Shown here: piece after piece, positions 3,719 through 53,296 of the stretch
Layout of the letters: every line of letters begins with the position of its first letter
Position numbering within the stretch: the first letter of the stretch is position 1
UHGV virus genome: UHGV-0057547
Length of the DNA: 64,000 bases
Direction: 5' to 3' (one strand)
Source: a virus
Notes under the pieces: generated by a model
What the model was told of the DNA's origin: nothing
The model's database searches: none
The model's input: the letters and a program-made list of their open reading frames with translations, nothing else
Program-made: the position numbers and the translations under genes

Positions 3719-4093
3719 TTACTTTAACAAATCTTCATTCTCATATATGTTTCCCACAACTTCAACATCACCAAAATACATATAAATATATAAACTATCT
3801 TCCCATTTCCCTTCATTTACAACACGATATTCACCATTGGTATATTTTACATATAAATTGGCTTCTCCATCGTCAAGTTTAACTTTTAATATATCACCTT
3901 CATATATTTCTTTTCCGTTTTTATCTTTTAAATTTGTATATTGCATTAATCTACAAACATATGAATACGTAGCTCTCCAACGTCTACATTCTTCATCTTC
4001 CATACCAACCTCATAATCATTTAATCCTATAAAATTAACAGTTGCCATTTCTTGTTTTTCAGTATCCCATGCTCTAAATTTAAATTCTCTCAT
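3719..4093 (-). CDS. hypothetical protein
   Basis: ORF track; start ATG 4093 (MREFKF) after GGTGATGAAT; flanked by a consensus promoter and a terminator. Confidence 0.5.
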   Translation of the reverse strand: MREFKFRAWDTEKQEMATVNFIGLNDYEVGMEDEECRRWRATYSYVCRLMQYTNLKDKNGKEIYEGDILKVKLDDGEANLYVKYTNGEYRVVNEGKWEDSLYIYMYFGDVEVVGNIYENEDLLK

Positions 4094-4681: not shown

Positions 4682-5242
4682 TTAAGATAATTCTAAACAT
4701 TTATGTTTTATTTTTTTAACCGCTCTATTGAAAATTTGATTTACATTTTGTTTTGATAAATGTAATATTTTACCCATTTCCTCAAACGTATAACCAGCTA
4801 AGAACAATCTTATAATTTGTCCACTTCTTTCACTTATTAAATCAGCATATTTTATTATTTCTTTAACTAAATCTTTTTCTATAATTTTATCTTCCAAATT
4901 ATAATCATATTCTATTAATTCTAATAATGTTTTACTTTCTTCTTCATGAACAATTTTTCTATCCAAACTATCAACAGTTGCATCTCCTCTTCTTTTCATT
5001 GTATTTTTATTTTGATAAAATTTTTTACAACTCCATTTAATAGAATTTTCTATAAAAACAGATTTTCCCATTACTTCATCTAATTTATCTAGGTCTTTTA
5101 ATAGATTTAATATTATTTCTGATTTCAAATCTTCAAGACCAAAATAATTATTCTTTGCATTGTTATAATAAAACATTCTTGCATATTTATCTATCAGCAT
5201 TTCATAATCATTTATTATGTTAACCTTTAATTCATTATTCAT
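4682..5242 (-). CDS. sigma-70 family sigma factor (small ECF/TcdR-like)
   Basis: Region-2-like and C-terminal region-4 HTH (ILHLSKQNVNQIFNRAVKKI); start ATG 5242 after GGAGATGGGG; E1 structured element in the 5' leader. Confidence 0.55.
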   Translation of the reverse strand: MNNELKVNIINDYEMLIDKYARMFYYNNAKNNYFGLEDLKSEIILNLLKDLDKLDEVMGKSVFIENSIKWSCKKFYQNKNTMKRRGDATVDSLDRKIVHEEESKTLLELIEYDYNLEDKIIEKDLVKEIIKYADLISERSGQIIRLFLAGYTFEEMGKILHLSKQNVNQIFNRAVKKIKHKCLELS

Positions 5243-5294
5243 ATACCCCATCTCCATTTATAATTTTTATTTTTCTAATATGTATTCTACTATA

Positions 5295-5408
5295 GTTTCA
5301 ATGCTTACATTTAAGCTTCCCTATTCAACATATCCTCTTTCACCTAATGGCTACTTGAGTTTGTGTGATACTCCCAGGGCGTAAATTCGGGTTTGAACAT
5401 CCCTACAT
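5295..5408 (-). ncRNA. E element copy 1 (structured leader RNA, TnpB right-end / omega-RNA-like)
   Basis: ~115-nt element between the promoter (5444-5472) and the sigma gene start. Identical to copy 2 and ~80% to copies 3-6. Compensatory substitutions in two hairpins between copies. Confidence 0.5.
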
Positions 5409-5443
5409 ATTAATTTTTTATTTTTATTATCTTATTTACTTAT

Positions 5444-5472
5444 ATTATACTATTGCTATTATTAAAAGTCAA
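5444..5472 (-). promoter_or_regulatory. consensus sigma-A promoter (-35 TTGACT, 17 nt, -10 TATAAT)
   Basis: Reverse complement reads TTGACTTTTAATAATAGCAATAGTATAAT. Confidence 0.6.
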
Positions 5473-6132: not shown

Positions 6133-6918
6133 CTAATCAGCAAATTTAAAAGATACTTTCATATCAGCTTTAGTACAACTAGCTTGAGCATTATATTTTT
6201 TATTTAATAGATTATATTTTATTGTATATTTGTTACAACCTAAAACTTTACAAGCTATTAAATAATTGTCAAATACTTTATGATAACCATCATTATTAAA
6301 TACAATTACTTCTTTATCTTCTATTTTATCACTTTCATCTTCATAATCATATTCATTAATACTTAATTGTTCTTTATTGTTTATTAATTCTTTTCTTAAT
6401 TTCATTATTAATTGTTGCACTCTTTGTTTACTTATTTCCATTTTACAACCTATTTCCTCATAGTTATAACCATTCATAAGCATTATAACTATATCATATA
6501 ATCTTTTATCTTTTAAATTTTTTATATAATTTAATATTTCATTTCTATAAATACCTGTAAAATCATCTAATCTTCCAACAGTTCTATCTCTAACTTTTTC
6601 GGTATCTTCATCCATACCTTCATTTTCATGAACTTTTCTTTCTCCACCTTTTTGAACATATTTATATAAATCATTATTAACAAAACTTAACATTTTATTT
6701 CTAATTGATTTTACAGCCAAAGTACTAAATTTTCCTTTACTTTCATCATAAGTTTTAATGACATTATATAAAGTTATCATTCCAATTTGTTTTAAATCAG
6801 CATATACATCATATTCAGATACAGTTGTATAGAAAAATCTTTGTATTACCCAATCCACTAAACTTTCATTTTCTATTAACATTTTTTCTATTCTTATTTC
6901 ATTTTCAAATTTTTCCAT
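6133..6918 (-). CDS. sigma-70 family sigma factor
   Basis: Region 2 (DLKQIGMITLYNVIKTYDESKGKFSTLAVKSIRNKM) and region 4 (EISKQRVQQLIMKLRKEL) signatures. Confidence 0.65.
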   Translation of the reverse strand: MEKFENEIRIEKMLIENESLVDWVIQRFFYTTVSEYDVYADLKQIGMITLYNVIKTYDESKGKFSTLAVKSIRNKMLSFVNNDLYKYVQKGGERKVHENEGMDEDTEKVRDRTVGRLDDFTGIYRNEILNYIKNLKDKRLYDIVIMLMNGYNYEEIGCKMEISKQRVQQLIMKLRKELINNKEQLSINEYDYEDESDKIEDKEVIVFNNDGYHKVFDNYLIACKVLGCNKYTIKYNLLNKKYNAQASCTKADMKVSFKFAD

Positions 6919-9250: not shown

Positions 9251-9339
9251 AATCATCTCTCCCTTTTTATAATTTTTTATATTTATTTTAATACTTGATT
9301 GTTATATTTGTATTATTCTTCTTCTTAGCTTATCGGTTT

Positions 9340-9454
9340 GTTTCAATGCTTACATTTAAGCTTCCCTATTCAACATATCCTCTTTCACCTAATGGCTACT
9401 TGAGTTTGTGTGATACTCCCAGGGCGTAAATTCGGGTTTGAACATCCCTACATA
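9340..9454 (-). ncRNA. E element copy 2
   Basis: Identical to copy 1; sits between promoter 9476-9530 and gene 8879..9250. Confidence 0.5.
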
Positions 9455-9672
9455 TTAATTTTTTATTTTTATTATCTTATTTACTTATATTATACTATTG
9501 CTATTATTAAAAGTCAAGTATTATTTTTATCTTATTTATTCGTCTACTTAGTTTCATGTTTGTTTTAGCATATGTTACATTTGTACGTAATCCATTTTTT
9601 AAATATAGAAGACTACTATCATGTTTCAGTGCTTGTTACACTTGTATGGAAAGACTACTAAAAAGACAATGG

Positions 9673-9788
9673 AGTTTCAGTGCTTTGACAAGCTTCCCTG
9701 TTCATCGTGTTCTTTTTCACTTTATATAAGCTACTCAAGTTTTTATAACACTCCAAGGGCGTAAATTCGGAACTGAACTTTCCTACAT
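9673..9788 (-). ncRNA. E element copy 3, directly 3' of tnpB (candidate right-end / omega-RNA scaffold)
   Basis: Begins ~45 nt after the tnpB stop, following a hairpin ACCGAATA..TATTCGGT, in the same orientation as tnpB. Its terminal ACAAGCACTGAAAC is duplicated 37 nt further on. Confidence 0.5.
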
Positions 9789-9832
9789 ACCGAATATATC
9801 TTGTTGGTGATTATTATTCGGTTTTATTATAT

Positions 9833-10999
9833 TTAATATTGTGCTAAGTTTATAGAGGCATTTAAGTCTCTATCCATTGTGTGTCCACATTCAGGACAAG
9901 TAAAAGTTCTATCTTTCAATTTTAATCTTTCTTTTCCTATTCTTATATATCCACATTTACTACAAGTTTGTGAACTAGGATACCATCTGTCAGCTACTAC
10001 TAATTCAATTCCATAGTCATCACATTTATAAGTTAATTGATTTTTGATTTCATTAAATCCTTGTTGCCCTATTGATTTACTTAGATGTTTATTTTTCATC
10101 ATCCCTTTTACGTTTAAATTTTCAATAACTACTCTTTGTGGTTTCTTTTCTACTATTTGATGTGTCATTGTATGTCTATAATTATTTCTTATACCTGCAA
10201 TTCTATGTTGTAATTTAAGTATTTGTTTTTCTAATTTTATTATATTATTAGTCTTATGATATTTCTTTCCTTGTCTATTCATTTCATATTTTCTACTCAC
10301 TTGTCGTTGCATACGTTTTAATTTCTTTTCTAATTTTCTAACATGAGCAGTTTTATTAATGTTTTTATATACTGTGCCATCACTACATATTGCTAAATCT
10401 TTTATTCCTAAGTCTATTCCTAATGATGTTGGATTTAATTCAGGTTTTTCTTTTATTTCTCTTAAGCCTACACTAATGCTCCAATATATCCCATTGTATG
10501 TGACTCTAGGATTTACATATTTAATTTTAGGATACATTTCGCTTTCTTCATAAGGTATATAACCTTTTCTAGCTAATTTGATTGTTCCTATCTTAGATAT
10601 TTTTACTGTATCTTCAGTGATTTTTATACGTTGATAATGTGGTGCAAAAGCTGGAGTTGTTTTATTTCTACTTTTAAATTTAGGATAACCAACATCAGGT
10701 CTTTTGAAAAAATTTTTAAAAGCATTACAACTATCTGTATATGCAATTACTAGTGCCATTGAATCACAATCTTTAAGCCATTCATTACCTTCTTGATTTT
10801 TGTAAGCAGTGAAATATTTGCTTAATCCTTTTGATGGTATAAACTTTTCTTTTTTAGGAATACTTTCATCTTCATATCTACTTTTTTGAAATGCTAAACA
10901 CCAATTATATACATGTCTTGCACATCCTGCTTGAAAGAACATTTGTTTTTCTTGTTGTTTTGTTGGATATAACCTAACTTTGAAAGTTCTAATCTCCAT
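9833..10999 (-). CDS. tnpB: TnpB (IS200/IS605-family RNA-guided RuvC-like nuclease), no adjacent TnpA
   Basis: RuvC-I IGIDLGIKDLAICSDG, RuvC-II VVIENLNVKGMMKN, zinc finger CSKCG..CPECGHTMDRDLNASINL; start ATG 10999 (MEIRTFKV) after GGGGGAATTGAAA. Confidence 0.85.
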   Translation of the reverse strand: MEIRTFKVRLYPTKQQEKQMFFQAGCARHVYNWCLAFQKSRYEDESIPKKEKFIPSKGLSKYFTAYKNQEGNEWLKDCDSMALVIAYTDSCNAFKNFFKRPDVGYPKFKSRNKTTPAFAPHYQRIKITEDTVKISKIGTIKLARKGYIPYEESEMYPKIKYVNPRVTYNGIYWSISVGLREIKEKPELNPTSLGIDLGIKDLAICSDGTVYKNINKTAHVRKLEKKLKRMQRQVSRKYEMNRQGKKYHKTNNIIKLEKQILKLQHRIAGIRNNYRHTMTHQIVEKKPQRVVIENLNVKGMMKNKHLSKSIGQQGFNEIKNQLTYKCDDYGIELVVADRWYPSSQTCSKCGYIRIGKERLKLKDRTFTCPECGHTMDRDLNASINLAQY

Positions 11000-11032
11000 T
11001 TTCAATTCCCCCATTTATCTTTATTTACTTAT

Positions 11033-11061
11033 ATTATACTATCGTCCTTATTAAAAGTCAA
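11033..11061 (-). promoter_or_regulatory. consensus promoter driving tnpB
   Basis: Reverse complement TTGACTTTTAATAAGGACGATAGTATAAT with 17-nt spacing. Confidence 0.6.
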
Positions 11062-11071
11062 TAAATTTTGA

Positions 11072-11100
11072 AAAAAACTGAGAAGAAAAATTTTCTTCTC
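11072..11100 (-). terminator. intrinsic terminator (GAGAAGAAAATTTTTCTTCTC plus T-run)
   Basis: Perfect hairpin followed by CAGTTTTTTT on the minus strand, right after the stop of 11100..11390. Confidence 0.55.
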
Positions 11101-11390
11101 TATATTAAATCATATAGTTCTATACATATTCTAGAAAGTAAATTATCTATTTCTATCAAATTGTCGGTACAAACAACATCCGTGTATTTCATTAAATTGG
11201 TAAGTGCATTTAAAACTCCTTTAATTTCTTCTTTTGATTTAAAATTTATTATTCCATTTTTAACTCTATTGTATAAAAATAATAAATAATATTCATCATC
11301 ACTCTTGAATCCTTTACCATACTTATTTAATGTTTTCTTTATGGCATCCTCTAGCATTTCACTTTCAACTAAGTTTAAATTATATTTCAT
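11100..11390 (-). CDS. hypothetical protein
   Basis: ORF track, 96 aa. Confidence 0.45.
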   Translation of the reverse strand: MKYNLNLVESEMLEDAIKKTLNKYGKGFKSDDEYYLLFLYNRVKNGIINFKSKEEIKGVLNALTNLMKYTDVVCTDNLIEIDNLLSRICIELYDLI

Positions 11391-11514
11391 AATTCCCCAA
11401 CTCCTTTTTATTTTTTTATTTTATTTACTTATATTGTACTATTACTTTTATTAAATGTCAAGTATTTTTGAAAAAAACTGAGAAGAAATTTTTCTTCTCT
11501 AAATTAAGTATTTA

Positions 11515-11799
11515 TTAAAATGTCTTAATTAAGAATACTATCATTATTACTACTCCTATGCCCCCTAAAATTGCTCCCATTTTACTAAATTTAATTTGTT
11601 CTTCCATTGCCATTATTAATCTTTCTTTGTCCTCTTGTACTGTAAATCCATCTTTTCTCATTTCCTCTATAAGCGTATCTATATTGGCTGAGTATTCATT
11701 GTAATATGCTCTATCTCTAATGTAATTTAGAATAGGTAAAAAAGCTAAACAAATACCAAATACTTCTAATGCTCTACTTATTAATAATGATAAATTCAT
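11515..11799 (-). CDS. small membrane protein (two TM segments)
   Basis: ORF track; hydrophobic N- and C-terminal segments. Confidence 0.45.
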   Translation of the reverse strand: MNLSLLISRALEVFGICLAFLPILNYIRDRAYYNEYSANIDTLIEEMRKDGFTVQEDKERLIMAMEEQIKFSKMGAILGGIGVVIMIVFLIKTF

Positions 11800-11940
11800 A
11801 AAATACCTCCAATTTAAAGTCCTTAAGACTATTTATTTTTTTTATTTTGTTTTTTTATATTTATTATACTATTATTATATCATGTAGTTTATGTTATGTC
11901 AAGCATTTTTGAAAAAACTGAGAAGAAAATTTTTCTTCTC

Positions 11941-12537
11941 TTATAAACTTAGATTTAATAAATTAACTTGTTCTATTATTTCTTTATTATCAGATAAAAA
12001 AACTTTTTTTCTTCTATCGTACAATACTACATGACTACCACATTTCTTGCAACTAGCACCTTTGAAGGCTTGCTTTTTGCTTTCTGTCAATTTACTAACA
12101 GTTCCTATTATTCCATCTTTTGGACAGATTACAAAATATTTATCATTTCTTTCTTCATATTTCAATTTTACTTTCAGACTATCAGATATTTCTAAATACT
12201 TACAAACTTCTTTCCATCTATCATCATGATTACAATTATCATCGTGTAATTCATTAGCTATATAATGTGCTAATTCATGTTTTAATACGTATTCAAGTTT
12301 TTCATTTGTTGCATTTCTAAAAAATGATTTAGATATTTGCATGTCACAAGGGACTATTTTTTTAGAGTTTCTTGTAAGATAAAATCTATAACAAGCAACT
12401 TTCTTTTTAAATCTTCCATTAAGATTTATATCTTTTTCAAATAATGGTATTTCATTTCCTGTTTTCTTATTAAACATTTCTATGTTTTCATTTAAAAATA
12501 CTCTTACTTCATTAACATTTTTTATTCTTCTTTCCAT
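11941..12537 (-). CDS. SprT-like zinc metalloprotease with C-terminal zinc ribbon
   Basis: HELAHYIANELH HExxH motif plus CKKCGSHVVL. Confidence 0.55.
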   Translation of the reverse strand: MERRIKNVNEVRVFLNENIEMFNKKTGNEIPLFEKDINLNGRFKKKVACYRFYLTRNSKKIVPCDMQISKSFFRNATNEKLEYVLKHELAHYIANELHDDNCNHDDRWKEVCKYLEISDSLKVKLKYEERNDKYFVICPKDGIIGTVSKLTESKKQAFKGASCKKCGSHVVLYDRRKKVFLSDNKEIIEQVNLLNLSL

Positions 12538-12650
12538 TCTTCATTCCCCCTAAAATATTTTTATTATTTATTTCTTTTATACTTATATTATATACTAGAT
12601 TTTATCTATTGTCAAGTATTTTTGTAAAAACTGAGAAGAAAAAATCTTCT

Positions 12651-13238
12651 CTATTCAACTTCAACTTCTATTTTTTTAAAAAAATCTATCATTTCTTTTT
12701 CGTATTTATTGAAAAGTCTGACTGCTTTTTTATCTGCTATTTTTTCACATTCGATATTCCTATAGTGTTCCATTTGCATCTCACCAATTAACCAAGTATT
12801 TATTTCATATTCCTTTTCACATTCAAAATATAATTTATTATATCCATGTTTATCAAGCGACCTATTTAGTGTTATCATATGCCCTATTTCATGTAATATA
12901 GAAACCATGCAATAAACTTGAAAAAAATTCATTTCATATTTTTTCATTATGTAATTGTAATTAAAACCATAATGCTTTAAATAATCCACAAAATATTCAT
13001 GCTGTCTAATTATACTTTCTCTTTCGGTATAAACATTTTCAGGAACATATAACAAACTATATCTATCAACTTTTTCTTGTCCTCCACATGCAAAAGATTT
13101 TTTTGAATATTTTTGTATGCAATAAGGTATTCCTTTTTTCAATTCTTTTTTCTCTATAAAAAAATCAAATATTGAATTCATAAAATCTTCTGTGATGTCA
13201 ATATATTTTCTTTTTATTAAATCACTTTTAAGTTTCAT
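12651..13238 (-). CDS. HExxH metallopeptidase-like protein
   Basis: ILHEIGHMITL motif. Confidence 0.45.
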   Translation of the reverse strand: MKLKSDLIKRKYIDITEDFMNSIFDFFIEKKELKKGIPYCIQKYSKKSFACGGQEKVDRYSLLYVPENVYTERESIIRQHEYFVDYLKHYGFNYNYIMKKYEMNFFQVYCMVSILHEIGHMITLNRSLDKHGYNKLYFECEKEYEINTWLIGEMQMEHYRNIECEKIADKKAVRLFNKYEKEMIDFFKKIEVEVE

Positions 13239-13384
13239 TTTTTATTTCCCCCTTTATACTATATATTATATATTAAGTTTTATATATTGTCAATCACTTT
13301 TGAAAAAAACTGAGAAGAAAAAATTCTTCTCTTTTAAAAAAAATTTTCTTTAATAAAATCTTTTATTTCAATTAGAATTACTCC

Positions 13385-13498
13385 GTTTCAATACTTGTTA
13401 TCAAGCTTCCCTATTCAACGTATCCTCTTCCCCTCTTATGAGGTACTCAAGTTTATATGATACTCCAAGGGCGTAAATTCGGAACTGAACTTTCCTAT
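13385..13498 (-). ncRNA. E element copy 4 (stand-alone unit: promoter, element, terminator)
   Basis: Preceded by promoter 13500-13560 and followed by a GAGAAGAATTTTTTCTTCTC terminator before the next promoter. Confidence 0.5.
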
Positions 13499-13657
13499 TT
13501 ATTTCTTATTTACTTATATTATACTATTTTTACTGTTGAATGTCAAGTATTATTTTTAAAAACTGGGAAGAAAAATTTTCTTCCCTTGATTGTTTTCGCA
13601 CAAAAGTAGGCTACGTCAGCACAAAAGTGGGCGACCCTATATTTTATTCCAATTTAA

Positions 13658-14236
13658 TTATTCCAATTTTTTAATCATATAGTGCGTAATTTTTCTTTTT
13701 CCTTTTTTCTTTCTTTTTAAATCATATCCATGCTCTTTTAATATTTTTTCTAAAGTGGGTAAACCTATTAATCTATTTCTGTTATCCCTAAGGTTATTTT
13801 TAATAATTATATCATTAAAAATAATATCTCTAGTAATCCATTTATTAAGTAGATTATCTTCAATGGAAAGGTCAATTTTTATATGTTTATGTTTTCTATG
13901 AATAACACTAAGATGACAATGTATACATAATGTTTTATAAGTATAAAACAAGTGTTTTCCTAATACTTTTTCTTCTATGTTTTTCAACTCTAATTTTGTA
14001 TAATTATCTATTGTTTTATATTCTTCTAGTCCTAACTCAATTAAAGTATCTTTTACCATATTAGCAAATGGATAAATGTGATGAACTTGTAAATCTTCAA
14101 TTCCACCGCATTGTTCACATTTATTCTTTTTAACTAACTTTACAAACTTATACCAAACTTTTATCCTTATATAATTGTTTAATGTTTGTTTTCTTTTTTC
14201 ATTATTTAACATTCCTTTTTTAATTATAATATTCAC
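13658..14236 (-). CDS. HNH endonuclease
   Basis: CEQCGG..LQVHHIYPF..CIHCH HNH/zinc motif. Confidence 0.6.
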   Translation of the reverse strand: MNIIIKKGMLNNEKRKQTLNNYIRIKVWYKFVKLVKKNKCEQCGGIEDLQVHHIYPFANMVKDTLIELGLEEYKTIDNYTKLELKNIEEKVLGKHLFYTYKTLCIHCHLSVIHRKHKHIKIDLSIEDNLLNKWITRDIIFNDIIIKNNLRDNRNRLIGLPTLEKILKEHGYDLKRKKKGKRKITHYMIKKLE

Positions 14237-14239
14237 CTT

Positions 14240-15307
14240 TTATTTTTTATTATAAATATACATTTTGTAGAAATTATCCCAAATTTGATAGTATTCTTCA
14301 GAATATTGAAGTTGTCTTAATCTACTTTCTTTCATAAGTATAGCATATTCAACATTAAATCCATTTCTAGATTTTATTTTTTCATCAATAGTTTTTTTAT
14401 TTTTATTTTGTCTTTTTAGTGCCAAAGATTTTCTAATTTCATATATATCATTTTTAATTATATCCACATCAAAACCATTTAAATAGTTCTTCTTAATATA
14501 TTCTATATCTTTAGTTAGAAAAATTTGAAATGCTTCATAAGTATATTTATATCCTAATTCACAAGTCAATTCAAAACTTAATTCTTTATCAAAGTCTTTT
14601 AATTTTTGAATATTACATTTTATATTTTCCTTTCTGTTGCCATATACTAAATCATTTCTACTTGTAATACTATATTTCTCACATATTCTATTTTCAATAT
14701 CTATTACTTTTCTTAATTGTATAGAATTTGTATTAAGATACACTTCATTATTTTCTAAGTCTACTGCAATTTTCACTTTATACCATTTTATTAAATTATC
14801 TTTTTTTTCAAGTTTATTTAAAGCAGATAAAAAATTTGAATATAAGGCAGAATTTTCAACAGAGAAAAAATCTTTTTTAACTATATCTTTATCGTTTAAA
14901 ATAGGATATTGATAATTAATATTCTTTTTTTCATTTGGATAAAATATTTCTACTAGAGCCATACTAGTTAGCCAATTGTCAAATGTTTTTACACAATATG
15001 TTTCATCTTTAAAATTGCAATAACCTATAATAGAATTTAATAAAGCTTGTTTCATTAAAAAACTCATACTCTTTTCATCCTCCTTAATATCATATACTTT
15101 CCTTTTGGAACTATCAAATTCTATCCCATTGCTCCCCATAAGAGTATAATATACTCTACTTCCTATTTTATTTTTTTCCACTGCACATACTTTGGAAAGT
15201 TTATTGATTAAAGTTTTTTCTTTTTTTCTAAAATTACTATAACTGTAGTCACAAAGTTCACAAAGTTCTTTTGATGTATAAGTCCCATCTTGTAATATTA
15301 CTTCCAT
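14240..15307 (-). CDS. hypothetical protein
   Basis: ORF track, 355 aa; start after GGAGTTGATGAT. Confidence 0.5.
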   Translation of the reverse strand: MEVILQDGTYTSKELCELCDYSYSNFRKKEKTLINKLSKVCAVEKNKIGSRVYYTLMGSNGIEFDSSKRKVYDIKEDEKSMSFLMKQALLNSIIGYCNFKDETYCVKTFDNWLTSMALVEIFYPNEKKNINYQYPILNDKDIVKKDFFSVENSALYSNFLSALNKLEKKDNLIKWYKVKIAVDLENNEVYLNTNSIQLRKVIDIENRICEKYSITSRNDLVYGNRKENIKCNIQKLKDFDKELSFELTCELGYKYTYEAFQIFLTKDIEYIKKNYLNGFDVDIIKNDIYEIRKSLALKRQNKNKKTIDEKIKSRNGFNVEYAILMKESRLRQLQYSEEYYQIWDNFYKMYIYNKK

Positions 15308-15489
15308 ATCATCAACTCCTTTTGTCCCCCAAACAGTTCTCTATATATATTATATTATATATTATATTATAGAACTGTTTGGGGGACATTATTTTTATAT
15401 ATTTATATATATTATACTATAAATTTTATTAAAAGTCAATAATAAAAATAAAAAAAAGAAAGGCTATTTAAACCTTTCTTTTATATGAA

Positions 15490-16065
15490 TTAAACATTAA
15501 ACATTAAATCACCTAAGCATAAAAGAAAATCTTTTTCTAATTCCCAGTTATCCCATATTAAAACATCATATTCATTTTTTGTATGTCCTTCATATCCTTT
15601 TTCACAATATAACCAAGTTATTAATTCACCATCGGCTTCTCTGTAAGTTGCTCTATGTGCCACTACTGTTTCTAAATAATTTGTATCATGTAAAAAATCT
15701 TCATTTTTTAAATCTTCTTCTGTTAATTTGTCTTTTGCTATTTTTAAAACAAATATATCATTACAGTTTTCTATATCTTCATCTTTATAACCTAAAGTCA
15801 CTGTTGCTTCATAATTATCATCCAATTCTTCTATATCTACATTAATCTTATCTATATCTTTAGCAGAATCTAAATATAATTTTTTATTATCATTTAATTC
15901 ATTATATTGTGGCTGATATTCTTCAATGTTTCTTTCGATTTCATTTATTATATTTTCTTTTAACAATTTTTCACCTTGTTCTATTTGGTTATTAGAACAT
16001 CCTATCATAGATATGGCCATTAGACCTCCTAAAATCAATCCTAAGCCCTTTCTAAATACTTTCAT
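15490..16065 (-). CDS. lipoprotein
   Basis: Signal peptide with lipobox MISMIGC. Confidence 0.55.
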   Translation of the reverse strand: MKVFRKGLGLILGGLMAISMIGCSNNQIEQGEKLLKENIINEIERNIEEYQPQYNELNDNKKLYLDSAKDIDKINVDIEELDDNYEATVTLGYKDEDIENCNDIFVLKIAKDKLTEEDLKNEDFLHDTNYLETVVAHRATYREADGELITWLYCEKGYEGHTKNEYDVLIWDNWELEKDFLLCLGDLMFNV

Positions 16066-16158
16066 GAATAATTCCTCCTTTAACCTTTAAAATTCATTTA
16101 AATCAATTATATCCCATTATAGGACAGAATATACAACTGAGGATATTAAATATCCTCT

Positions 16159-16314
16159 TTATTTGTTTTTATCAGGTAGACAAACTATAACTAATAGTGC
16201 GAAAAATCCAAAGAAAAATCCTAATAATAACCAAGCTACAGTACTTCTACCTTTTTCAGTAGCAATAAGACAACATCCAATTGCAAATAAAATACTCCAA
16301 ATTAATATAGCCAT
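16159..16314 (-). CDS. small membrane protein (51 aa)
   Basis: Unlisted ORF MAILIWSILFAIGCCLIATEKGRSTVAWLLLGFFFGFFALLVIVCLPDKNK, RBS AAAAGGAG. Confidence 0.4.
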   Translation of the reverse strand: MAILIWSILFAIGCCLIATEKGRSTVAWLLLGFFFGFFALLVIVCLPDKNK

Positions 16315-16380
16315 AATTTCAACTCCTTTTTAAATTTTATATTTTGTTATCAACTGAGGATATTAAATATCCTCTTTAAT

Positions 16381-16971
16381 TTAATATGTTATTAAATCCA
16401 ATTCTTCCATTTCGTTTAATAAGTCATAATCGCATACATCTTTATAATAGCCATTTTCATATTTAAATAAATTTATCTCATCGCTTAAAGCATTTACTTC
16501 TACATAATATATTTCATCATTTAATTCAACTTCTACTGATTTAGAACATTCTAAGAATAATTCTAAAAATTCTTCTTCATAATTAAATTTCAAATACATC
16601 CATTCAGAATATCCAACTCTTACATCTCCACGTCCACAATGAACTCTAAATCCAACTATATATTCATCTTCTTTAGTATCATAATAAGTTCTAAAATCAA
16701 TATGATTAATTAATGGTGCATTCCAGTTATAAGTATTATCGGCAGTTATTTCTTCTATCCAACCTTCATCAAGTCCTATTTCTAAATAATCATCAATATA
16801 ATATTCATAATCAGTTTCTTCTTCTTTATCCCATATAATACCATTAATAACTTCATAAGGTTCTAAAACATTTAATATATCCATTATATCAACTGTCAAT
16901 TCATTTTCTTTTATATTATAAGTTCCTTCTAAGCATTTTTTTACATCTTCTATTTTTGTTCTTCCAAACAT
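16381..16971 (-). CDS. hypothetical acidic protein
   Basis: ORF track; start ATG 16971 after GGAGGTTTAT. Confidence 0.5.
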   Translation of the reverse strand: MFGRTKIEDVKKCLEGTYNIKENELTVDIMDILNVLEPYEVINGIIWDKEEETDYEYYIDDYLEIGLDEGWIEEITADNTYNWNAPLINHIDFRTYYDTKEDEYIVGFRVHCGRGDVRVGYSEWMYLKFNYEEEFLELFLECSKSVEVELNDEIYYVEVNALSDEINLFKYENGYYKDVCDYDLLNEMEELDLITY

Positions 16972-17220
16972 ATAAACCTCCAAGTTTAAAGTCCTAAAGA
17001 CTATTTATTTTTTTATTTATACTTATATTATATAGTATAATTTATATCATGTCAACTATTTTTAAAAAAATATTTTAAATTTTTTATTTTGTTTTTATTG
17101 ATTGTTAATAACTGAGAACATTAAATATCCTCTTTATACTATATATTATATATTAGTTTATATGATATGTCAATATAATATTAAAAAAATATAGAGAAAA
17201 AATCTCTATATTTTTTATAT

Positions 17221-18051
17221 CTATGCCAATTGTTGTAAATCAGTTTTATTTATTTCTATTTTTAAAATTTTACTTAATGCCATTATGCCTTTAGGAGTGA
17301 TTTTAAGATTACTATAATTATGACCTTCTTTCTCTCCAACTATTACCTTAAACCACGTTTTATCAACTTCAGAATACGGTAACCAACTTTTGCCTTGCTT
17401 GAATATAATTCTATTTTCATTTAATGTTTTATTAAATTGTTGTGCTGATTTAAATTTAAATAATTTAGCAACTTGAGTTGATGTATATAATCCATTGCTA
17501 TTCATAAAATCATCAAAATAATTTACTTTAGGTTTATCTTTTTCTATTTTTTCTAATAATGGTTTCTTTTCTAGTTTTGCTAATTCTTTTGATGCTACTA
17601 TTCCCTCTTGTCCACCATTATAGATATCTAGTAATAATTTTGCTTTTAATTGTTCATCAGAATTTATTACTTCTCTCATTGCAAAATATTCTCTTCTTAA
17701 TTGTTTTCTTATTTCTTTTGCTTTTTCAGTTTTCATGAATCCAACCAATAACATATAACCTTGTTCAGATAATAAATAGCAATTTTTTTGTCTATTATTA
17801 GTTATAAATCCTAAAACCTTAGCAAGGTTTAAGGATTTTTCATCAGACATCAAATCCAATAAATCAATTCCTATTTCAAATTCATCTATATGTTCATTTA
17901 TTAATGTATTAACTTTATCCAATCTAGTATCATGTATTTCAGATATTGTTTTAGCTAAGATAGCTTTTTGACCTTCACCAAATCCACTTTCTACAACAGG
18001 TATTTCTTTACCCATAAAATCTTGTGTGCCATTAACTTTCAATTCATTCAT
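17221..18051 (-). CDS. phage antirepressor-like regulatory protein
   Basis: N-terminal NGTQDFMGKEIPVVESGFGEG motif shared with 21650..22747 (paralogs); resembles ORF6N/KilA-N-type phage regulators. Confidence 0.4.
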   Translation of the reverse strand: MNELKVNGTQDFMGKEIPVVESGFGEGQKAILAKTISEIHDTRLDKVNTLINEHIDEFEIGIDLLDLMSDEKSLNLAKVLGFITNNRQKNCYLLSEQGYMLLVGFMKTEKAKEIRKQLRREYFAMREVINSDEQLKAKLLLDIYNGGQEGIVASKELAKLEKKPLLEKIEKDKPKVNYFDDFMNSNGLYTSTQVAKLFKFKSAQQFNKTLNENRIIFKQGKSWLPYSEVDKTWFKVIVGEKEGHNYSNLKITPKGIMALSKILKIEINKTDLQQLA

Positions 18052-18167
18052 ATTACCAGCTCCTTTTATTCTTATTTGATTATATTATACTTATGCCTTT
18101 ATTAAAAGTCAATAAAAACCTAAAAATAAATTTTAGGTTTCATAACTGAGGATTAATTAAAACCCTC

Positions 18168-18602
18168 TTATTTTACTTTATGTCCATTTATGCTATAAGT
18201 ATGAGTTTTGCCTTTATTGTCAATTCCTTTCACTGTCACCTTATAAGTTCTATATTCTTTTAAATCTTTTTCCATATTTGTTCCATGTAATTTGTTAGCT
18301 ACTTGTTTTACTATCTTCTTAGTTTTAGAACTGTTTAAGTTGCTTCTAAATTTAACTACATATTCTTTACTATTCATTTTTAAACTATAACTTGTTATTC
18401 TTAAATATTTTAATACTTCTTTATTTTCTCTTTTTTCTATGCTGTCAAGTGTTATGTAAGTTCTTCCTTTTGCTCCTTGAATTACTTTAGCATTAATTAT
18501 TACTGTATTTCCTAAAACCATTAAACCTATTAAACCTACCATAGTAATTTTTTTTATTAAATTTTTCATAATATCAAATCTCCTTTTTATTTTTTTATTC
18601 AC
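18168..18602 (-). CDS. secreted protein
   Basis: N-terminal signal-peptide-like hydrophobic segment. Confidence 0.45.
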   Translation of the reverse strand: MNKKIKRRFDIMKNLIKKITMVGLIGLMVLGNTVIINAKVIQGAKGRTYITLDSIEKRENKEVLKYLRITSYSLKMNSKEYVVKFRSNLNSSKTKKIVKQVANKLHGTNMEKDLKEYRTYKVTVKGIDNKGKTHTYSINGHKVK

Positions 18603-18623
18603 CTTTTGGGTGATAACTGAGGA

Positions 18624-18839
18624 TTATAAAATCCTCTTAAAATAAAAATTGAAGTTCATTCTATTAATGTCATCATGTATCATGTCATCGTGGACTTTTA
18701 CCCACTCATCGGATACACTGCTTAACAAATCCTCTATGCCTTCATTGAAATAGCTTAAATAAAAATTGTCAAATTTAATTGCGTTCATATCCAACTCTCT
18801 ATCCTCTGAAAACATATTATTTTTTGCTTCTACTGTCAA
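18624..18839 (-). CDS. hypothetical protein
   Basis: ORF track, 71 aa; E5 in its leader. Confidence 0.4.
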   Translation of the reverse strand: MTVEAKNNMFSEDRELDMNAIKFDNFYLSYFNEGIEDLLSSVSDEWVKVHDDMIHDDINRMNFNFYFKRIL

Positions 18840-18842
18840 TAG

Positions 18843-18954
18843 GTTTCAGTGCTCATTAGTAAGCTTCCCTGTTCAACGTGTTCTCTTTCGTTTTAAACTA
18901 CTCAAGTTTTTTACAACACTCCAAGGGCGTAAATTCGGAACTGAACTTTCCTAT
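18843..18954 (-). ncRNA. E element copy 5
   Basis: Starts immediately after promoter TTGACATTATATATAAGCTAGTATATAAT (18958-18995). Confidence 0.5.
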
Positions 18955-19045
18955 TTATATTATATACTAGCTTATATATAATGTCAACTGAAAACTTAAA
19001 AATAAATTTTAAATTTTCTCACTGAGGATATTATTAAATATCCTC

Positions 19046-19303
19046 TTAATACCATTTTCCGTATCTACTTTCATATTCATCTAGTGTTATTATACTAAAA
19101 TCAATCTCTGAATCTACCTCTGATATTTCAACTATATAAGGTTTTCTATTGATAAAAACTTTTGTATCTGAAACATATTTTATATTGTCTAAAACCTTTT
19201 TTAAATTTTGTTTATTAAGTTTATCTAGCATATTATCATATATACCTAATGTATACCCTTCACTTTTTATTTTATTTATTATTATTTCCTTATTTGTTTT
19301 CAT
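19046..19303 (-). CDS. hypothetical protein
   Basis: ORF track, 85 aa. Confidence 0.45.
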   Translation of the reverse strand: MKTNKEIIINKIKSEGYTLGIYDNMLDKLNKQNLKKVLDNIKYVSDTKVFINRKPYIVEISEVDSEIDFSIITLDEYESRYGKWY

Positions 19304-19416
19304 TTTTAAAATCCTCCTAATTCATTTTTATACTATAATTGTATCATAGTATTTATCTATTGTCAAGTAAAAACTTAAAAATAATTTTTATTTTTCTTAA
19401 CTTTCATAACTGAGGA

Positions 19417-19842
19417 TTAATTAAAATCCTCCAAAGATATTAGTATTTGTTTAAATACATTATCATTGCTTAAATCTTTTATTATATTTTTTAAATCATT
19501 ATTTTTATTACTGTCTCTTATTATTAATTCTATGTCTTCTTCTATGTAATCTATGCTGTCATAGACATATTCTTCATAGTCACATCCCATATAGCTTACT
19601 AGTTCTCCATTATCATTATAATGAAATAAATCTTCATTAGAATTAAAATTACCATTTTCAATTTTATCTGCTATTTCTAGTGGCTCTAAACCTTCCATTA
19701 ATTCGTTGAATTCTTCCATATCATGAACTATTAACCAATCTAAATAAAAACTATTATAACTTATAACTTCAACAAGTTCTAATAAATCAGTGTAATTACT
19801 TCTATCCTCTAAATTTTTTCTTAAAGATTCAAATTTATTCAT
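19417..19842 (-). CDS. hypothetical acidic protein
   Basis: ORF track, 141 aa. Confidence 0.45.
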   Translation of the reverse strand: MNKFESLRKNLEDRSNYTDLLELVEVISYNSFYLDWLIVHDMEEFNELMEGLEPLEIADKIENGNFNSNEDLFHYNDNGELVSYMGCDYEEYVYDSIDYIEEDIELIIRDSNKNNDLKNIIKDLSNDNVFKQILISLEDFN

Positions 19843-19979
19843 AATAACAACTCCCTTATTTATTTTTTTTATTTATCTTTATACTATGTATTATATACTA
19901 GTAATTATATATTGTCAAGTGAAAATCTAAATTTTATTTTTAAATTTTCATAACTGAGAATACAGAATTGTATTCTCTT

Positions 19980-20309
19980 TTAGATATTTAAGAATTCATT
20001 ATCTTCTAACATTGTTACTTTATAATCATAATATTTTTTTATAATGTTGATATCGTTTTTATCATATGCTATTATATAAATATTACCTTCTACTTCAGCA
20101 ACTTCTCCAATAATAAAATTATTAAATCGTTCCAATGTTAAATCTTCCAATACAGAATCATCTTCTTCAAATAATTTTTCTTTTTCTTTTTCATCTTTTG
20201 CTAATAAATCAACTAAACATTCAAAATGTAAACTATTTTCTATAAGTTTTCCATCAGCTATAACAAAAGCATTTTTTCTATATAATTCATAATCATATTC
20301 TATTTTCAT
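19980..20309 (-). CDS. hypothetical protein
   Basis: ORF track, 109 aa. Confidence 0.45.
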   Translation of the reverse strand: MKIEYDYELYRKNAFVIADGKLIENSLHFECLVDLLAKDEKEKEKLFEEDDSVLEDLTLERFNNFIIGEVAEVEGNIYIIAYDKNDINIIKKYYDYKVTMLEDNEFLNI

Positions 20310-20437
20310 AATAATAACTCCCTTTAATTTATTTTTTATTTATCTTTATACTATGTATTATATATTAGTGATTATATATTGTCAAGCATTTAAATAAAAA
20401 AATCCATATATTTTTACATATATGGATTTTAGATATT

Positions 20438-20662
20438 TTATTTAAAATAATAATTCATATTATTTACAATTAAGTTAGTAACATATAGTAAACCTTTTTT
20501 AGTCATACAGATACCCTTAGAATTATTATTTATATTTTCATATATAAATAAATTTTTCTTTTTATTTTTATCTGTTAATCTTTCACTTGTTTTGAATTGC
20601 TTTTGTTTTATCATAAATTTATTAAATAATGTTATTCCTATTTTTTTTATGATAGAATTCAT
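20438..20662 (-). CDS. possible small basic protein
   Basis: ORF track; overlaps the upstream gene end by 41 nt and has no own promoter. Confidence 0.25.
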   Translation of the reverse strand: MNSIIKKIGITLFNKFMIKQKQFKTSERLTDKNKKKNLFIYENINNNSKGICMTKKGLLYVTNLIVNNMNYYFK

Positions 20663-21374
20663 ATTTATTAAATAAATCTACGTATTCTTTTTTACCCATA
20701 ATTACATTATCATCTAAACTATTTAAATAAGTTTTAAACTTATCTAAATTAGTTATATTAATTACTGTCATATCATTATTTTTAGTAGTTAAAGTTTTAG
20801 AACTTTTATTTAAATCATCAATCTTATCAGATAAACTTTCTATCATTTTTAATAATTCATTTATTGTTTTATTTTGTTCTTCTATTTTATCAAGTAGTTC
20901 CGTATTGTTTACTGTTAGTGTTTCATTATTAGAATTTCCATTTAAAATTATGTCAAGCATTTTACTTCTTATTTCTTGTGCTACTTTGCTATCTCTTAAT
21001 AACATTGCCATATTTAAAAAACATCTTTTATTTACCAATGTATTACTTCTATTATTAAATTTTCTATTATCTGATATAAAATAACCTTTATAGTTATGAA
21101 GGGAAATATTGTCCCCTCCTAAAAATTCTCTTGTTTCCTTACCTTTTAATATTAATAAACCATTTTTAATTAATTCTCTTTTATTGTTTTGAACTAATTT
21201 TTTAATACATTCATAATCAACTTCAAAATATTTAGCCACTCTGTCAAGTGTTTCATATTCCATATTATTAATTGTAGTTATAGTTTTATATTTATTCATT
21301 ATATCTAAACTTTTATTATTATTTAATATCTCTTGTCTTAATTCCTCTTTTTCTAAAATATCATTTAATACCAT
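20622..21374 (-). CDS. hypothetical protein (possible phage regulatory C-terminal-type domain)
   Basis: ORF track; start probably ATG 21374 after GGAGTTGGTAATA. Confidence 0.45.
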   Translation of the reverse strand: MVLNDILEKEELRQEILNNNKSLDIMNKYKTITTINNMEYETLDRVAKYFEVDYECIKKLVQNNKRELIKNGLLILKGKETREFLGGDNISLHNYKGYFISDNRKFNNRSNTLVNKRCFLNMAMLLRDSKVAQEIRSKMLDIILNGNSNNETLTVNNTELLDKIEEQNKTINELLKMIESLSDKIDDLNKSSKTLTTKNNDMTVINITNLDKFKTYLNSLDDNVIMGKKEYVDLFNKYEFYHKKNRNNII

Positions 21375-21649
21375 TATTACCAACTCCTTTTATATTTTTT
21401 ACTTATATTATACTTATACATTTATTAAAAGTCAATGAATACTCATAAAAATATTTAATTTTCCATAAATATTTTATAGAAATATAAACTCAAATCTAAA
21501 TTTAATTTTTGTCAAATTTTGTCGATTAATACCAAATAAAAAAACCCAAAGCTAAATTTAATTTTAACTTTGGGATAACTGAGGATTAATATAATCCTCT
21601 ATAAATAATACTTGTAATTAATTTTACTGTTTATTATATTACCAACTCC

Positions 21650-22747
21650 CTATTGTAATAATTCTAACAATTTATTTAAACCATCATCTGTTATTTTACT
21701 GTATTTATAATATCTATACATATAATTATTATCTCTAGCATATTGTGTTTCAATTTCATTTTTATCTAACCAATTTATTTTTTTAAGTTTATTCATTAAG
21801 TATTCTAAACTAATGTCATTGTTAAGGTTATTATTTAATATTTTTAATGCTTGTCTATATGTGTATCCTTCATTTGTTTTTCTTCTCTTTTTTTCTTCTG
21901 TCGTTCTATTAATTATTTTAGATATTTGTTGCATTAATTTTAATATGTCATTATCTATGATATAATCTACCATTTTAGGATTCCATGTATAAACGTTTGT
22001 TATGCTTGCTCTACATAAACCGTTTTTAATAAATTCATTTTCAAATTTATCATTATGTATAAATCTAGTTTTTTTATTTATTAATTTATTTTCACCATAT
22101 CCTTTTATTTCTAATGCTTCAAAGAAAATTTTTGTAAACAATTTCTTTGAAGGTAATTGTTTTATTAAATCTATTGTTGATAAATAATTTTCTATTCTTT
22201 CATTTTCTAATTCTATTTTATCAATTTCCTTTTGTTTTTCAGCCCCATATTCTTCTTTTAGTTCACCGAATAATTTTGTATTTAAAACTCTATCTTCTTC
22301 TGTATTTGAAAATATAGATTTATAAAATGTTTCAGCTAATATTTTTTCTTTTGAATTTACAATTTCTCTCATAGTAAAATAATCATCAACTAATTTATCA
22401 TGTATTTCCCAGGCTAAATCTGTATCCATTATTTTTATAAGTTTTGCATAACCTCTTTCTGATAATAAGTAAATATTTTTAGCTTGTGTTATAGATTGTT
22501 TAGCGTAACCCATTTTTGTCAACGTATCGTTGTCGTCGATACGTTTAAGATTTATAAAATCTACACCTTCTTTAAATCTTTTGATGTTTTTATTAAGTGT
22601 TTCTCTAACATGAATCATTTTCATATTATGTATTTCAGATATAACTTTATCAGTTAAACATCTTTTTCCTTCACCAAAACCACCTTCTATCACTGGTATT
22701 TTAACTCCCATAAAATCTTGTGTGCCATTAATTATGATATTATTCAT
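21650..22747 (-). CDS. phage antirepressor-like regulatory protein (paralog of 17221..18051)
   Basis: NGTQDFMGVKIPVIEGGFGEG N-terminal motif; start ATG 22747 after GGAGTTGGTAAAT. Confidence 0.4.
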   Translation of the reverse strand: MNNIIINGTQDFMGVKIPVIEGGFGEGKRCLTDKVISEIHNMKMIHVRETLNKNIKRFKEGVDFINLKRIDDNDTLTKMGYAKQSITQAKNIYLLSERGYAKLIKIMDTDLAWEIHDKLVDDYFTMREIVNSKEKILAETFYKSIFSNTEEDRVLNTKLFGELKEEYGAEKQKEIDKIELENERIENYLSTIDLIKQLPSKKLFTKIFFEALEIKGYGENKLINKKTRFIHNDKFENEFIKNGLCRASITNVYTWNPKMVDYIIDNDILKLMQQISKIINRTTEEKKRRKTNEGYTYRQALKILNNNLNNDISLEYLMNKLKKINWLDKNEIETQYARDNNYMYRYYKYSKITDDGLNKLLELLQ

Positions 22748-23142
22748 ATTTACCAACTCCTTTATATATTTGATTATATTATACTTAACATATTATTAAA
22801 AGTCAATAAATACTCATAAATATATTTAATTTTCCATAAAAATATATATCTCTGAGCCATTTAAATGGATTTTAAGCTTGTTATAACTACTTAATGGATA
22901 AACTATTCATTAAGTTATAAACTCATATTTAAATTTAATTCTTGTCAATTCTGTTTAAAAATAGGCATAAAAAAAATCCTCTACCATAATAGTAGAGGAT
23001 TAATTAGTTTCTAATAATAAAGTCCCTTCTGATTTTATTTTGTTACTTCCATAAGTATCTCTTATAGAACTCATATTTTTTCCTTATTTATTTCTTTAAA
23101 TACTTCTTCATTTTCCTTTCTATCAGGGTGAAACTTCATAGC

Positions 23143-23256
23143 GTTTCAATGCTTGTAACAAGCTTCCCTATTCAACGTGTTCTTTTTCACTTTATAAGCT
23201 ACTCAAGTTTTTGTAACACTCCCAGGGCGTAAATTCGGAACTGAACTTTCCTACAT
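23143..23256 (-). ncRNA. E element copy 6
   Basis: Downstream of promoter TTGACTTTTAATAATAATAGCAGTATAAT; followed by two tiny ORFs and a terminator. Confidence 0.5.
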
Positions 23257-23385
23257 GTTATTTTTAATTTTTTATTTTATTTACCTATATTATACTGCTA
23301 TTATTATTAAAAGTCAATAAATATTTTCATTTTTTTATTTAATTTTCACAAAACTTTTTAACTTTCAGCAATAACTGAGGATTAA

Positions 23386-39517: not shown

Positions 39518-39743
39518 TAATATCAATCCTTTCTATTTTATTTACATATATTAAATAAGACAATAAAATTTTATACGATATTTCGAGTAATTTATTTTAC
39601 TTTTAATAAAATTATGAGTATAATATATATAAAATAAATAAAAACAAAGGGGAGATAACAGTTAAAGATAAGTTATAAAATTTTATAAAATACTATTGAT
39701 TTTTATCACTTATCTTAGTATTTTATAATAAAGAGGTGATAAA

Positions 39744-40874: not shown

Positions 40875-40888
40875 AAGATAACCATAAT

Positions 40889-40958
40889 ATGTACCTATTC
40901 GTTAGTGGGGAATTTAAGTCCTTCAAATATTATTACTAGAGTAGGTTTGCTGAAATAG
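40889..40958 (+). ncRNA. reduced E-like element 3' of the second tnpB (candidate omega-RNA / right end)
   Basis: ATGTACC..GGAATTTAAGTCC..GCTGAAATAG parallels the start (ATGTAGG..CGAATTTACGCCC) and end (CACTGAAAC) of the E elements in RNA sense. Confidence 0.35.
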
Positions 40959-41012
40959 AATAATAAAAGGAAATTATAACTTTTTTATAAGTTTTAAGTA
41001 ACGGAGATAGAT

Positions 41013-53267: not shown

Positions 53268-53296
53268 TTTACTTTTAATGAGAATCATAGTATAAT
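53268..53296 (+). promoter_or_regulatory. consensus-type promoter (TTTACT-17-TATAAT)
   Basis: TTTACTTTTAATGAGAATCATAGTATAAT, then RBS GGAAGGAG. Confidence 0.5.

Follow-up and report, generated by a model that had tools for sequence, protein, structure and literature searches.

Cas12 evolved from TnpB, a transition that turns above all on the passage from a single, transposon-bound guide to many free ones. In IS607-type systems, RAGATH-18 (Rfam RF03064) is the core of the right-end-element RNA (reRNA) that binds TnpB and guides it to DNA, as established experimentally (Cell Res 2024, PMC11061315), with the guide at the 3' end of the RNA and AGGAG or GAGGG as the transposon-associated motif (TAM) (PMC11061315). 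Intermediates between transposons and CRISPR, termed TranC (Cell 2025), arose from IS605 and IS607 TnpBs by 'functional RNA splitting' according to two reviews (PMC13565253, PMC13639567), and one of them, CauTranC9, is a phage-borne, TnpB-sized TranC with a phage-targeting array (bioRxiv 10.64898/2026.03.27.714800). Neither the RNA family nor its role with TnpB nor the split form is therefore new. Here we compare with these systems a locus of the virus genome UHGV-0057547, of which a stretch of 64,000 nucleotides (nt), hereafter the window, was analysed. It carries six RAGATH-18 elements, E1 to E6, and a TnpB nuclease gene, tnpB1. Our preferred reading is that the six elements act in trans and guide TnpB1 to the genomes of sister phages that lack them, for exclusion or homing; built on sequence comparison, it is assigned a rough probability of 0.55.

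All six elements match RAGATH-18 over the full length of the model (positions 1-71) on the minus strand, at 57.3-68.4 bits (E 1e-8 to 2e-11) against a curated gathering score of 44.9 bits, and nothing besides them reaches a gathering score in the Rfam scan of the window. They are 112-115 nt long and span ATGTAGG or ATAGG to GAAAC; the DNA following their A(U/C)UGAAAC tail would be read as the guide. E3 starts 44 nt past the tnpB1 stop codon, outside the tnpB1 reading frame, and the other five lie 0.4-12 kb from tnpB1, behind promoters. E1 and E2 are exactly identical over 178 nt, from the -35 hexamer through GAAAC, and the remaining pairs share 70-90% identity. The elements, their candidate guides and the nuclease gene are arranged as follows:

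5295..5408, minus strand: E1, free-standing scaffold (RAGATH-18 58.4 bits); guide 5275-5294 TATAGTAGAATACATATTAG; promoter 5444-5472
9340..9453, minus strand: E2, free-standing scaffold, duplicate of E1 including the promoter; guide 9320-9339 AAACCGATAAGCTAAGAAGA; promoter 9489-9517
9674..9788, minus strand: E3, fused (single-guide) reRNA scaffold directly 3' of tnpB1 (RAGATH-18 68.4 bits)
9789..9822, minus strand: hairpin ACCGAATA..TATTCGGT separating E3 from the stop codon of tnpB1, conserved in the sister-phage loci L009 and L011-L013
9833..11014, minus strand: tnpB1, gene for a TnpB nuclease of 393 amino acids (aa) (Pfam HTH_OrfB_IS605, OrfB_IS605 and Cas12f1-like_TNB; NCBIfam guided_TnpB, 306 bits)
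11033..11061, minus strand: tnpB1 promoter, of the same class as those upstream of E1, E2, E4 and E6
13385..13498, minus strand: E4, free-standing scaffold; guide 13365-13384 GGAGTAATTCTAATTGAAAT; promoter 13518-13546; terminator 13312-13331
18843..18954, minus strand: E5, free-standing scaffold, beginning approximately at the transcription start of its promoter; guide 18823-18842 CTATTGACAGTAGAAGCAAA; promoter 18959-18987
23143..23256, minus strand: E6, free-standing scaffold; guide 23123-23142 GCTATGAAGTTTCACCCTGA; promoter 23289-23317; terminator 22975-23001

The source of the window is a 204-kb metagenome contig (JGI 3300045988; G+C 23-25%) encoding an endolysin, exonucleases, a Dda-like helicase, anti-repressors, integrases and sigma-like factors, a gene content from which it follows that the window is part of a large phage; megablast of its 5-24 kb portion against GenBank phages and PLSDB plasmids returned zero matches. 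Sister phages, that is, contigs of the same metagenome, were recovered by scanning viral contigs (IMG/VR) for a 21-nt scaffold motif and carry further copies of the element. Across 18 distinct fused copies from the window phage and its sisters, 17 of them free-standing, a six-helix fold of 24 pairs is 99.1% paired, with 11 pairs changed on both sides, compared with 40-54% pairing and 1-3 pairs changed on both sides in controls in which the pairing partner was slid by 1-3 columns. The single-stranded motifs GAAUUUACG, GGAGU, GAGUA, GGGAA and A(U/C)UGAAAC are invariant across the 18 copies. As all but one of the aligned copies are free-standing, the covariation indicates that it is in these solo copies that selection maintains the fold. 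The scaffold consists, in order, of a 5' hairpin, the GAAUUUACG linker, the RAGATH-18 core, a short 3' hairpin and the 8-nt single-stranded tail A(U/C)UGAAAC.

The same architecture characterizes canonical IS607 loci. Specifically, 20 bacterial TnpB1 relatives (at most 54% identity) each carry a single RAGATH-18, located about 65 nt past tnpB, and all 20 of their reRNAs are composed of a 5' hairpin, a linker, the core, a 3' hairpin and 8 nt ending in AAC (..UUGGCAACGG), followed by the guide. The phage elements follow this layout with a 3' flank of 22 nt versus about 41, a shorter 3' hairpin and the tail AUUGAAAC. Judged by sequence, they are complete scaffolds, not fragments. They resemble the IS607 reRNA (RF03064; ISFba1 TnpB, 8iaz; PMC11061315) in a core that scores above the Rfam threshold, in the order of parts and in an RNA that lies outside the tnpB frame. 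They differ in number and position, as a single RNA directly follows tnpB in canonical loci (20 of the 20 bacterial loci) and the window has six for tnpB1, five of them remote. They also differ at their ends: canonical loci have TnpA upstream and an RNA ending in ..UUGGCAACGG with a GG crossover core, whereas the window elements have no TnpA, end in A(U/C)UGAAAC and lack GG in their flanks.

TnpB1 itself is closest, among solved structures, to the IS607 TnpB of ISFba1 (8iaz_A, E 4e-68), with which it shares nuclease size and the RuvC triad. The triad is intact, D201/E298/D383 aligning to ISFba1 D194/E290/D371 (eleven landmark residues checked). By contrast, the ISFba1 residues that read the TAM (K80, K83, N121, N122 and N61) are all replaced in TnpB1 (M86, V89, H126, Y127 and T69), and this loss of every AGGAG-reading residue fits a changed TAM; the published IS607 motif is AGGAG or GAGGG, and the junctions described below point to TTA for the window elements. 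A first-pass annotation, made from the letters of this DNA alone, had described six copies in one orientation, the first two identical and the others about 80% similar, with compensatory hairpin changes and the third copy directly 3' of tnpB. All of this is borne out by the comparisons above, bar small shifts of the ends: the third copy, given as 9673-9788, ends at 9674, base 9673 being the first guide base. The annotation's assignment to IS200/IS605 was right as to a TnpB guide-RNA scaffold, and the covariance-model search that it had proposed, with six of six elements above the gathering score, moves the family to IS607/RAGATH-18 and away from IS200/IS605 proper.

Comparison by synteny shows that the guides of E4, E5 and E6 match element-free alleles of sister phages with 0-3 mismatches. 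At the E4 site, three sister phages (L004, L010 and L007) have an intact open reading frame (ORF) for a small membrane protein and no element; in the window and in L014, E4 substitutes for the first ~25 codons (~75 nt) of this ORF, which resumes after GAAAC. The E4 target is perfect in L004, has one mismatch, at position 12, in L010 and L007, and is preceded by TTA or ATA. At the E5 site, L004 and L007 have 35 nt with the ribosome-binding site (RBS) and ATG after the same promoter, and exactly these are swapped for the 110-nt element in the window; the guide target lies behind TTA with 1 mismatch (L007) or 3 mismatches (L004). At the E6 site, a J-domain (HPD) gene is intact in L007, and the element displaced its RBS and 22 codons in the window; the E6 guide has a perfect 24-nt match in L007 behind CTA, its only other occurrence in IMG/VR. 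Four further sister-phage elements also have element-free alleles, three of which lie in the window, all on the minus strand and behind TTA with 1-2 mismatches: 16440-16466 (matched by L004/L007), 3994-4016 (L002) and 11925-11946 (L004). Because window sites are matched by sister-phage elements, targeting between these phages would be reciprocal.

Of eight independent junctions, six have TTA, one has CTA and one has TTG immediately 5' of the target; with a background TTA frequency of 0.044, the probability of at least 6 of 8 is 1.9e-7. These junctions suggest that TTA is the TAM. Also seen, at several left ends, is a TTA directly ahead of ATATGTAGG, namely in E1 (5409-5411), E2 (9454-9456), two L004 copies and L007; copies starting with ATAGG are without a left-end TTA, and a candidate TAM may have been retained at the left end of some copies. 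The guides are nothing more than insertion flanks, which is how ordinary TnpB systems work, and the carrier has GAAAC instead of TTA ahead of the guide sequence and should therefore be immune. Within the window, the six guides and two slots of a decayed array described below have only AT-rich noise with 2-5 mismatches as self-targets and no match that combines TAM and target.

The comparisons establish the RNA family, the conserved fold, the catalytic residues of TnpB1, the anatomy of the insertions, the target matches and the bias towards TTA; transcription, loading onto TnpB1, cleavage and the biological outcome we infer along the following lines. E3 would be co-transcribed with tnpB1 and the other five elements would be transcribed from strong resident phage promoters; as tnpB1 shares its promoter class with the solo guides E1, E2, E4 and E6, nuclease and guides should appear together. 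Each free-standing copy has taken the place of DNA reaching from the promoter into the interior of the downstream gene, its guide thus being what remains of that gene. During co-infection, guide-loaded TnpB1 would cut the element-free sister alleles, and the competitor would either be destroyed or have the promoter-scaffold cassette copied in by recombinational repair. The closest functional analogy is with the free-standing homing endonucleases of T-even phages (Seg, Mob), which are likewise small selfish units in or between phage genes, use phage promoters, are present or absent among relatives and act on alleles devoid of them; the analogy (intronless homing, marker exclusion) is drawn from PMC13565253 and general background. 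Unlike in Seg and Mob, recognition here would depend on a TAM and an RNA guide, a single nuclease gene being shared by several cheap RNA 'warheads'. Non-autonomous IS200/IS605 derivatives, similar to palindrome-associated (PATE) or miniature inverted-repeat (MITE) transposable elements and with an omega-RNA, are comparable in being guide-RNA units without a nuclease gene that depend on a nuclease in trans. They differ from the window elements, which are without left end, terminal structures and target duplication and replace 35-75 nt or more.

The transcriptional setting of the free-standing elements bears on a second explanation. E1, E2, E4, E5 and E6 start 5-35 nt downstream of a -10 hexamer, behind promoters that match 11-12 of the 12 consensus (sigma-70) positions. 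The consensus promoters reported in the first-pass annotation are thus real, and they belong to a resident phage class (n=14) rather than to the element. This class, TAGTATAATATAAGTAAATAA after TTGACx-17, has its 14 window members at 2375-23297 (minus strand) and at 53288 and 59902 (plus strand), and also precedes tnpB1 and genes without an element. In the 5-24 kb portion there are 22 near-perfect sigma-70 promoters and 17 terminators versus 1.5 expected; many of these terminators form a single family, GAGAAGAAAAnTTTTCTTCTC then AGTTTTTTT. Five copies lie between promoter and genes, hence in the transcripts of those genes unless these are terminated, and TnpB processes its own transcript. Such elements might be cis-acting parts of the 5' untranslated region that control stability, processing or translation of downstream genes, possibly via TnpB1 binding, an explanation that we regard as very improbable. 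In E4, promoter, scaffold, guide and a terminator 54 nt past the scaffold make up a closed unit, after which the next gene has a fresh promoter; neither relationship nor a common function links the downstream genes; in sister phages the same genes sit behind the same promoters without the element; and the insertions remove RBS and start codon rather than regulate them.

L014 has two tandem free-standing copies where the window carries tnpB1, E3, a remnant and E2, and L010 has a single copy that is a recombinant of both L014 copies. One and the same site may be occupied by different scaffold variants, as for E4 in the window and L014 and for E1 in the window compared with L002 and L006; at the E1 locus of L006 the variant scaffold stands behind the same promoter and is followed after GAAAC by 171 extra nt of a gene's 3' end. 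Left junctions fall within the conserved promoter leader, and right junctions lie exactly at GAAAC, against TTA-preceded sequence. Resident sequence was replaced rather than added to, by 35 nt for E5, ~75 nt for E4 and more for E6, and only the right boundary is sharp. A left crossover in the class promoter combined with a guide or spacer/target match on the right would produce both junction types. Two other routes were considered and set aside. The promoter is not a general part of a mobile cassette, given its class size in the window and the presence of the promoter without the element at the E5 and E6 sites of sister phages; E1 and E2, in which the promoter was duplicated along with the scaffold, differ from this general case. 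Movement by an IS607 TnpA is unlikely, as tblastn with the IS607 TnpAs of four bacterial loci detected no homologue in the window and the element flanks have no GG core.

Several observations weigh against a role of the elements as guides for TnpB1. No TnpA, left end or target duplication was found that would account for the spread of scaffold-only units. Three uncultivated virus genomes (UViG _159628, _160472 and _152729) carry free-standing copies with no TnpB1 orthologue by peptide-pattern scan, and the orthologous place in _159628 has promoter and scaffold without tnpB1, so that copies can persist without a nuclease in cis, unless these contigs are incomplete. No TTA-flanked target was identified for E1, E2 or E3. 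The E5 target has a mismatch at position 6, in the TAM-proximal part, an RNA in an operon leader would need 3' trimming, and the TTA bias could be a trace of the insertion mechanism rather than of nuclease specificity.

Some of these observations would also be expected under the main rival explanation, in which the elements are selfish relics, namely the leftover right ends of former tnpB1 insertions from which tnpB was deleted, unused and harmless in non-essential early genes. A guide that merely equals the insertion flank, the polymorphism between promoter-tnpB1-scaffold in the window and promoter-scaffold in L014, the sister phages with copies and no detectable TnpB1, and the visible decay of the array after E3 all fit such an origin. 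Relics should, however, decay like the neighbouring repeat remnants, and the 17 free-standing copies instead hold 99% pairing by compensatory changes, with invariant single-stranded motifs; a near-perfect promoter stands right ahead of every copy, and E1 and E2 arose by a recent, exact duplication of scaffold and promoter together, with its end precisely at GAAAC. On balance we find this explanation unlikely, though it is the strongest competitor of the guide function proposed here.

Close relatives of TnpB1 connect the window elements to CRISPR-like arrays. L009 (UViG _166499) has a TnpB1 orthologue 93% identical in sequence, and its locus matches the window exactly up to GGGAAGCTTGT / GGGAAGCUUGU. 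Beyond that point it continues with a 27-nt anti-repeat and, ~190 nt on, with three 37-nt repeats GTACAAGTGYAATATACAATATAACAAGCATTGAAAC and 36-nt spacers. Six loci of smaller phages (L011-L013 and L096-L098; nucleases 71-79% identical) have arrays of 2-6 or more repeats with a 73-nt period, and in all there are 24 distinct spacers in 8 arrays. Anti-repeat and repeat form a duplex of 27-29 bp at -32.8 kcal/mol, compared with -6.9 +/- 2.6 for shuffles, that leaves AUUGAAAC single-stranded before the spacer. The 3' hairpin of the window elements (for example, GCUUGUUA/CAAGC then AUUGAAAC in E6) is the beginning of the anti-repeat fused to the end of a repeat. Window elements thus look like natural single-guide fusions of the split tracrRNA/array form (tracrRNA, trans-activating CRISPR RNA). 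Behind E3, without an anti-repeat, remain one truncated and one degenerate repeat:

9562..9673, minus strand: decayed mini-array after E3 (slot 1, 9649-9673; spacer of 36 nt, 9587-9622; degenerate terminal repeat, 9562-9586)
9623-9648, minus strand: truncated repeat ATACAAGTGTAA/CAAGCACTGAAAC within the mini-array, compared with the intact 37-nt repeats of L009 and L011-L013

A second phage TnpB clade (L109, L110 and L117 from IMG/VR, metagenome 3300045988), 56-60% identical to TnpB1, shows a fused long hairpin in L110 and arrays in L109 and L117, with repeats that end in ACAAGGATTAAAAC.

The TnpB1 relatives (71-93% identity) resemble TranC in having a tracrRNA, made of the RAGATH-18 core and a 27-nt anti-repeat, and an array of 37-nt repeats with ~36-nt spacers, in being TnpB-sized nucleases of phages, and in arrays without adaptation genes: no Cas adaptation domains (cas1, cas2, cas4) were found in the eight ORFs flanking the L011 array, the one locus checked. 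Compared with TranC by description only, the window form differs in being unsplit, with a decayed array and with guides that are dispersed and continuous with the flank instead of being spacers; a further difference is the coexistence of fused and split forms in one phage lineage with a 93%-identical nuclease. The arrays raise the alternative that E2, E3 and the mini-array slots are CRISPR-like spacers directed at plasmids, unrelated phages or the host's defence genes. It would be in keeping with the 24 different spacers that true arrays hold in close TnpB1 relatives, with the reported phage-borne TranC and its phage-targeting array (bioRxiv 10.64898/2026.03.27.714800) and with the lack of a sister-phage match for the E2 and E3 guides. 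Against it, none of the spacers or guides searched in IMG/VR or in the collected loci has a protospacer. Specifically, the 24 array spacers have none in the 0.76 Mb of window and sister-phage loci; viral scans with one L013 spacer and one L009 spacer returned only the arrays themselves or nothing; and no target was found for the mini-array slots or, in IMG/VR, for the E2 guide. The E3 guide has no sister-phage match in a viral scan, and a single metagenome scan returned two unrelated GC-rich contigs without TTA, which we judge to be chance. With, in addition, no adaptation genes beside the array checked, we hold this alternative to be rather improbable.

Taken further than the guide function itself, the comparisons would tentatively allow a broader scenario, which we put well short of an even chance. 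In this jumbo-phage lineage, one TnpB-sized nuclease and dispersed, individually promoted single guides would together constitute an RNA-guided form of 'intronless homing' or allelic exclusion. Cassettes would overwrite the starts of dispensable genes and target the intact TTA-preceded alleles of competitors, new cassettes would arise by recombination at promoter and guide/spacer, and the same lineage would capture the transition from reRNA to CRISPR, or its reversal. In the literature searched, we found no phage in which one nuclease has several dispersed single guides, each with a promoter of its own, no such guides aimed at sister-phage alleles behind TTA and no coexistence of fused and split forms within one lineage. 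A single phage lineage, with near-identical nucleases and an apparently shortened TAM, holds the guide fused beside the nuclease, dispersed guides, and a split tracrRNA plus array. If the dispersed guides are active, phages would be turning TnpB on their closest relatives as a gene drive or a weapon with several targets, and guides could be multiplexed by a natural route without CRISPR adaptation machinery; a nuclease this compact (393 aa), with a TAM of 3 nt and a natural single guide of ~112 nt, would then also be of practical interest.

The window encodes a second nuclease, TnpB2, on the opposite strand, whose cassette is a separate system:

39653-41004, plus strand: tnpB2 cassette, IS607-like and without TnpA, with GG-core junctions behind AGGGG
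39744-40874, plus strand: tnpB2, encoding a nuclease 44% identical to TnpB1 that keeps the RuvC triad and the equivalent of K83

In L004 and L010 the tnpB2 cassette occupies the equivalent of 12534-12555 (minus strand), an empty site in the window. The tnpB2 reRNA (40875-41004) shares the 5' hairpin and linker with the six elements, has a shrunken core that Rfam leaves unscored, and ends in ..AAGTAACGG / ..AAGUAACGG (..AACGG) at 41004; its guide would start at 41005, just ahead of the start codon of a T5orf172/DUF4041 gene. That the free-standing copies serve TnpB2, or both nucleases, is an idea prompted by two sister phages in which copies occur with a tnpB2 cassette 1.3-1.7 kb away and no detected tnpB1, and it would agree with the retained triad and the shared 5' hairpin and linker. 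We think it hardly probable, as TnpB2 is only 44% identical to TnpB1 and has its own reRNA, with a different end and core, its junctions show a GG core and an AGGGG-type neighbour, not TTA, and the free-standing copies resemble the scaffold adjoining tnpB1.

These results also settle how far the first-pass annotation reached. Its core claim, TnpB guide scaffolds each with a different guide, is upheld by the RAGATH-18 matches, the covariation, the homology of TnpB1 and the TTA-flanked alleles, and the search that it had suggested for matches to the variable 3' segments succeeded for E4, E5 and E6 in sister phages and gave no TTA-flanked target for E1, E2 and E3. Of the two TnpB proteins for which it had envisaged guides, TnpB1 is the one retained here and TnpB2 is unlikely to share them. 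The shortened relative that it had noticed after the second tnpB is real, with the RNA end ~46 nt further, at 41004 (AAGTAACGG), and not at GAAATAG, and the link of this guide family to CRISPR-like arrays had escaped it.

All genes between 523 and 28436 lie on the minus strand. Two genes for sigma-factor-like proteins (phrog_351; 4682-5257 and 6133-6918, minus strand) are in the same early-gene block, and E1 lies in the leader of the first. Other genes of mobile or homing type, all on the plus strand, encode an IS1595-like DDE transposase (33638-34684), an HNH endonuclease (62286-63203) and a T5orf172 (GIY-YIG-like) protein (41013-42155). An AT-rich palindromic stretch at 15322-15389 has weak, spurious matches to plant microRNAs in Rfam (E 0.07-0.12). 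At 44201-46543 (minus strand), an ORF of 780 aa (phrog_25468, function unassigned) coincides with a local jump in G+C to 0.34, compared with ~0.24 elsewhere.

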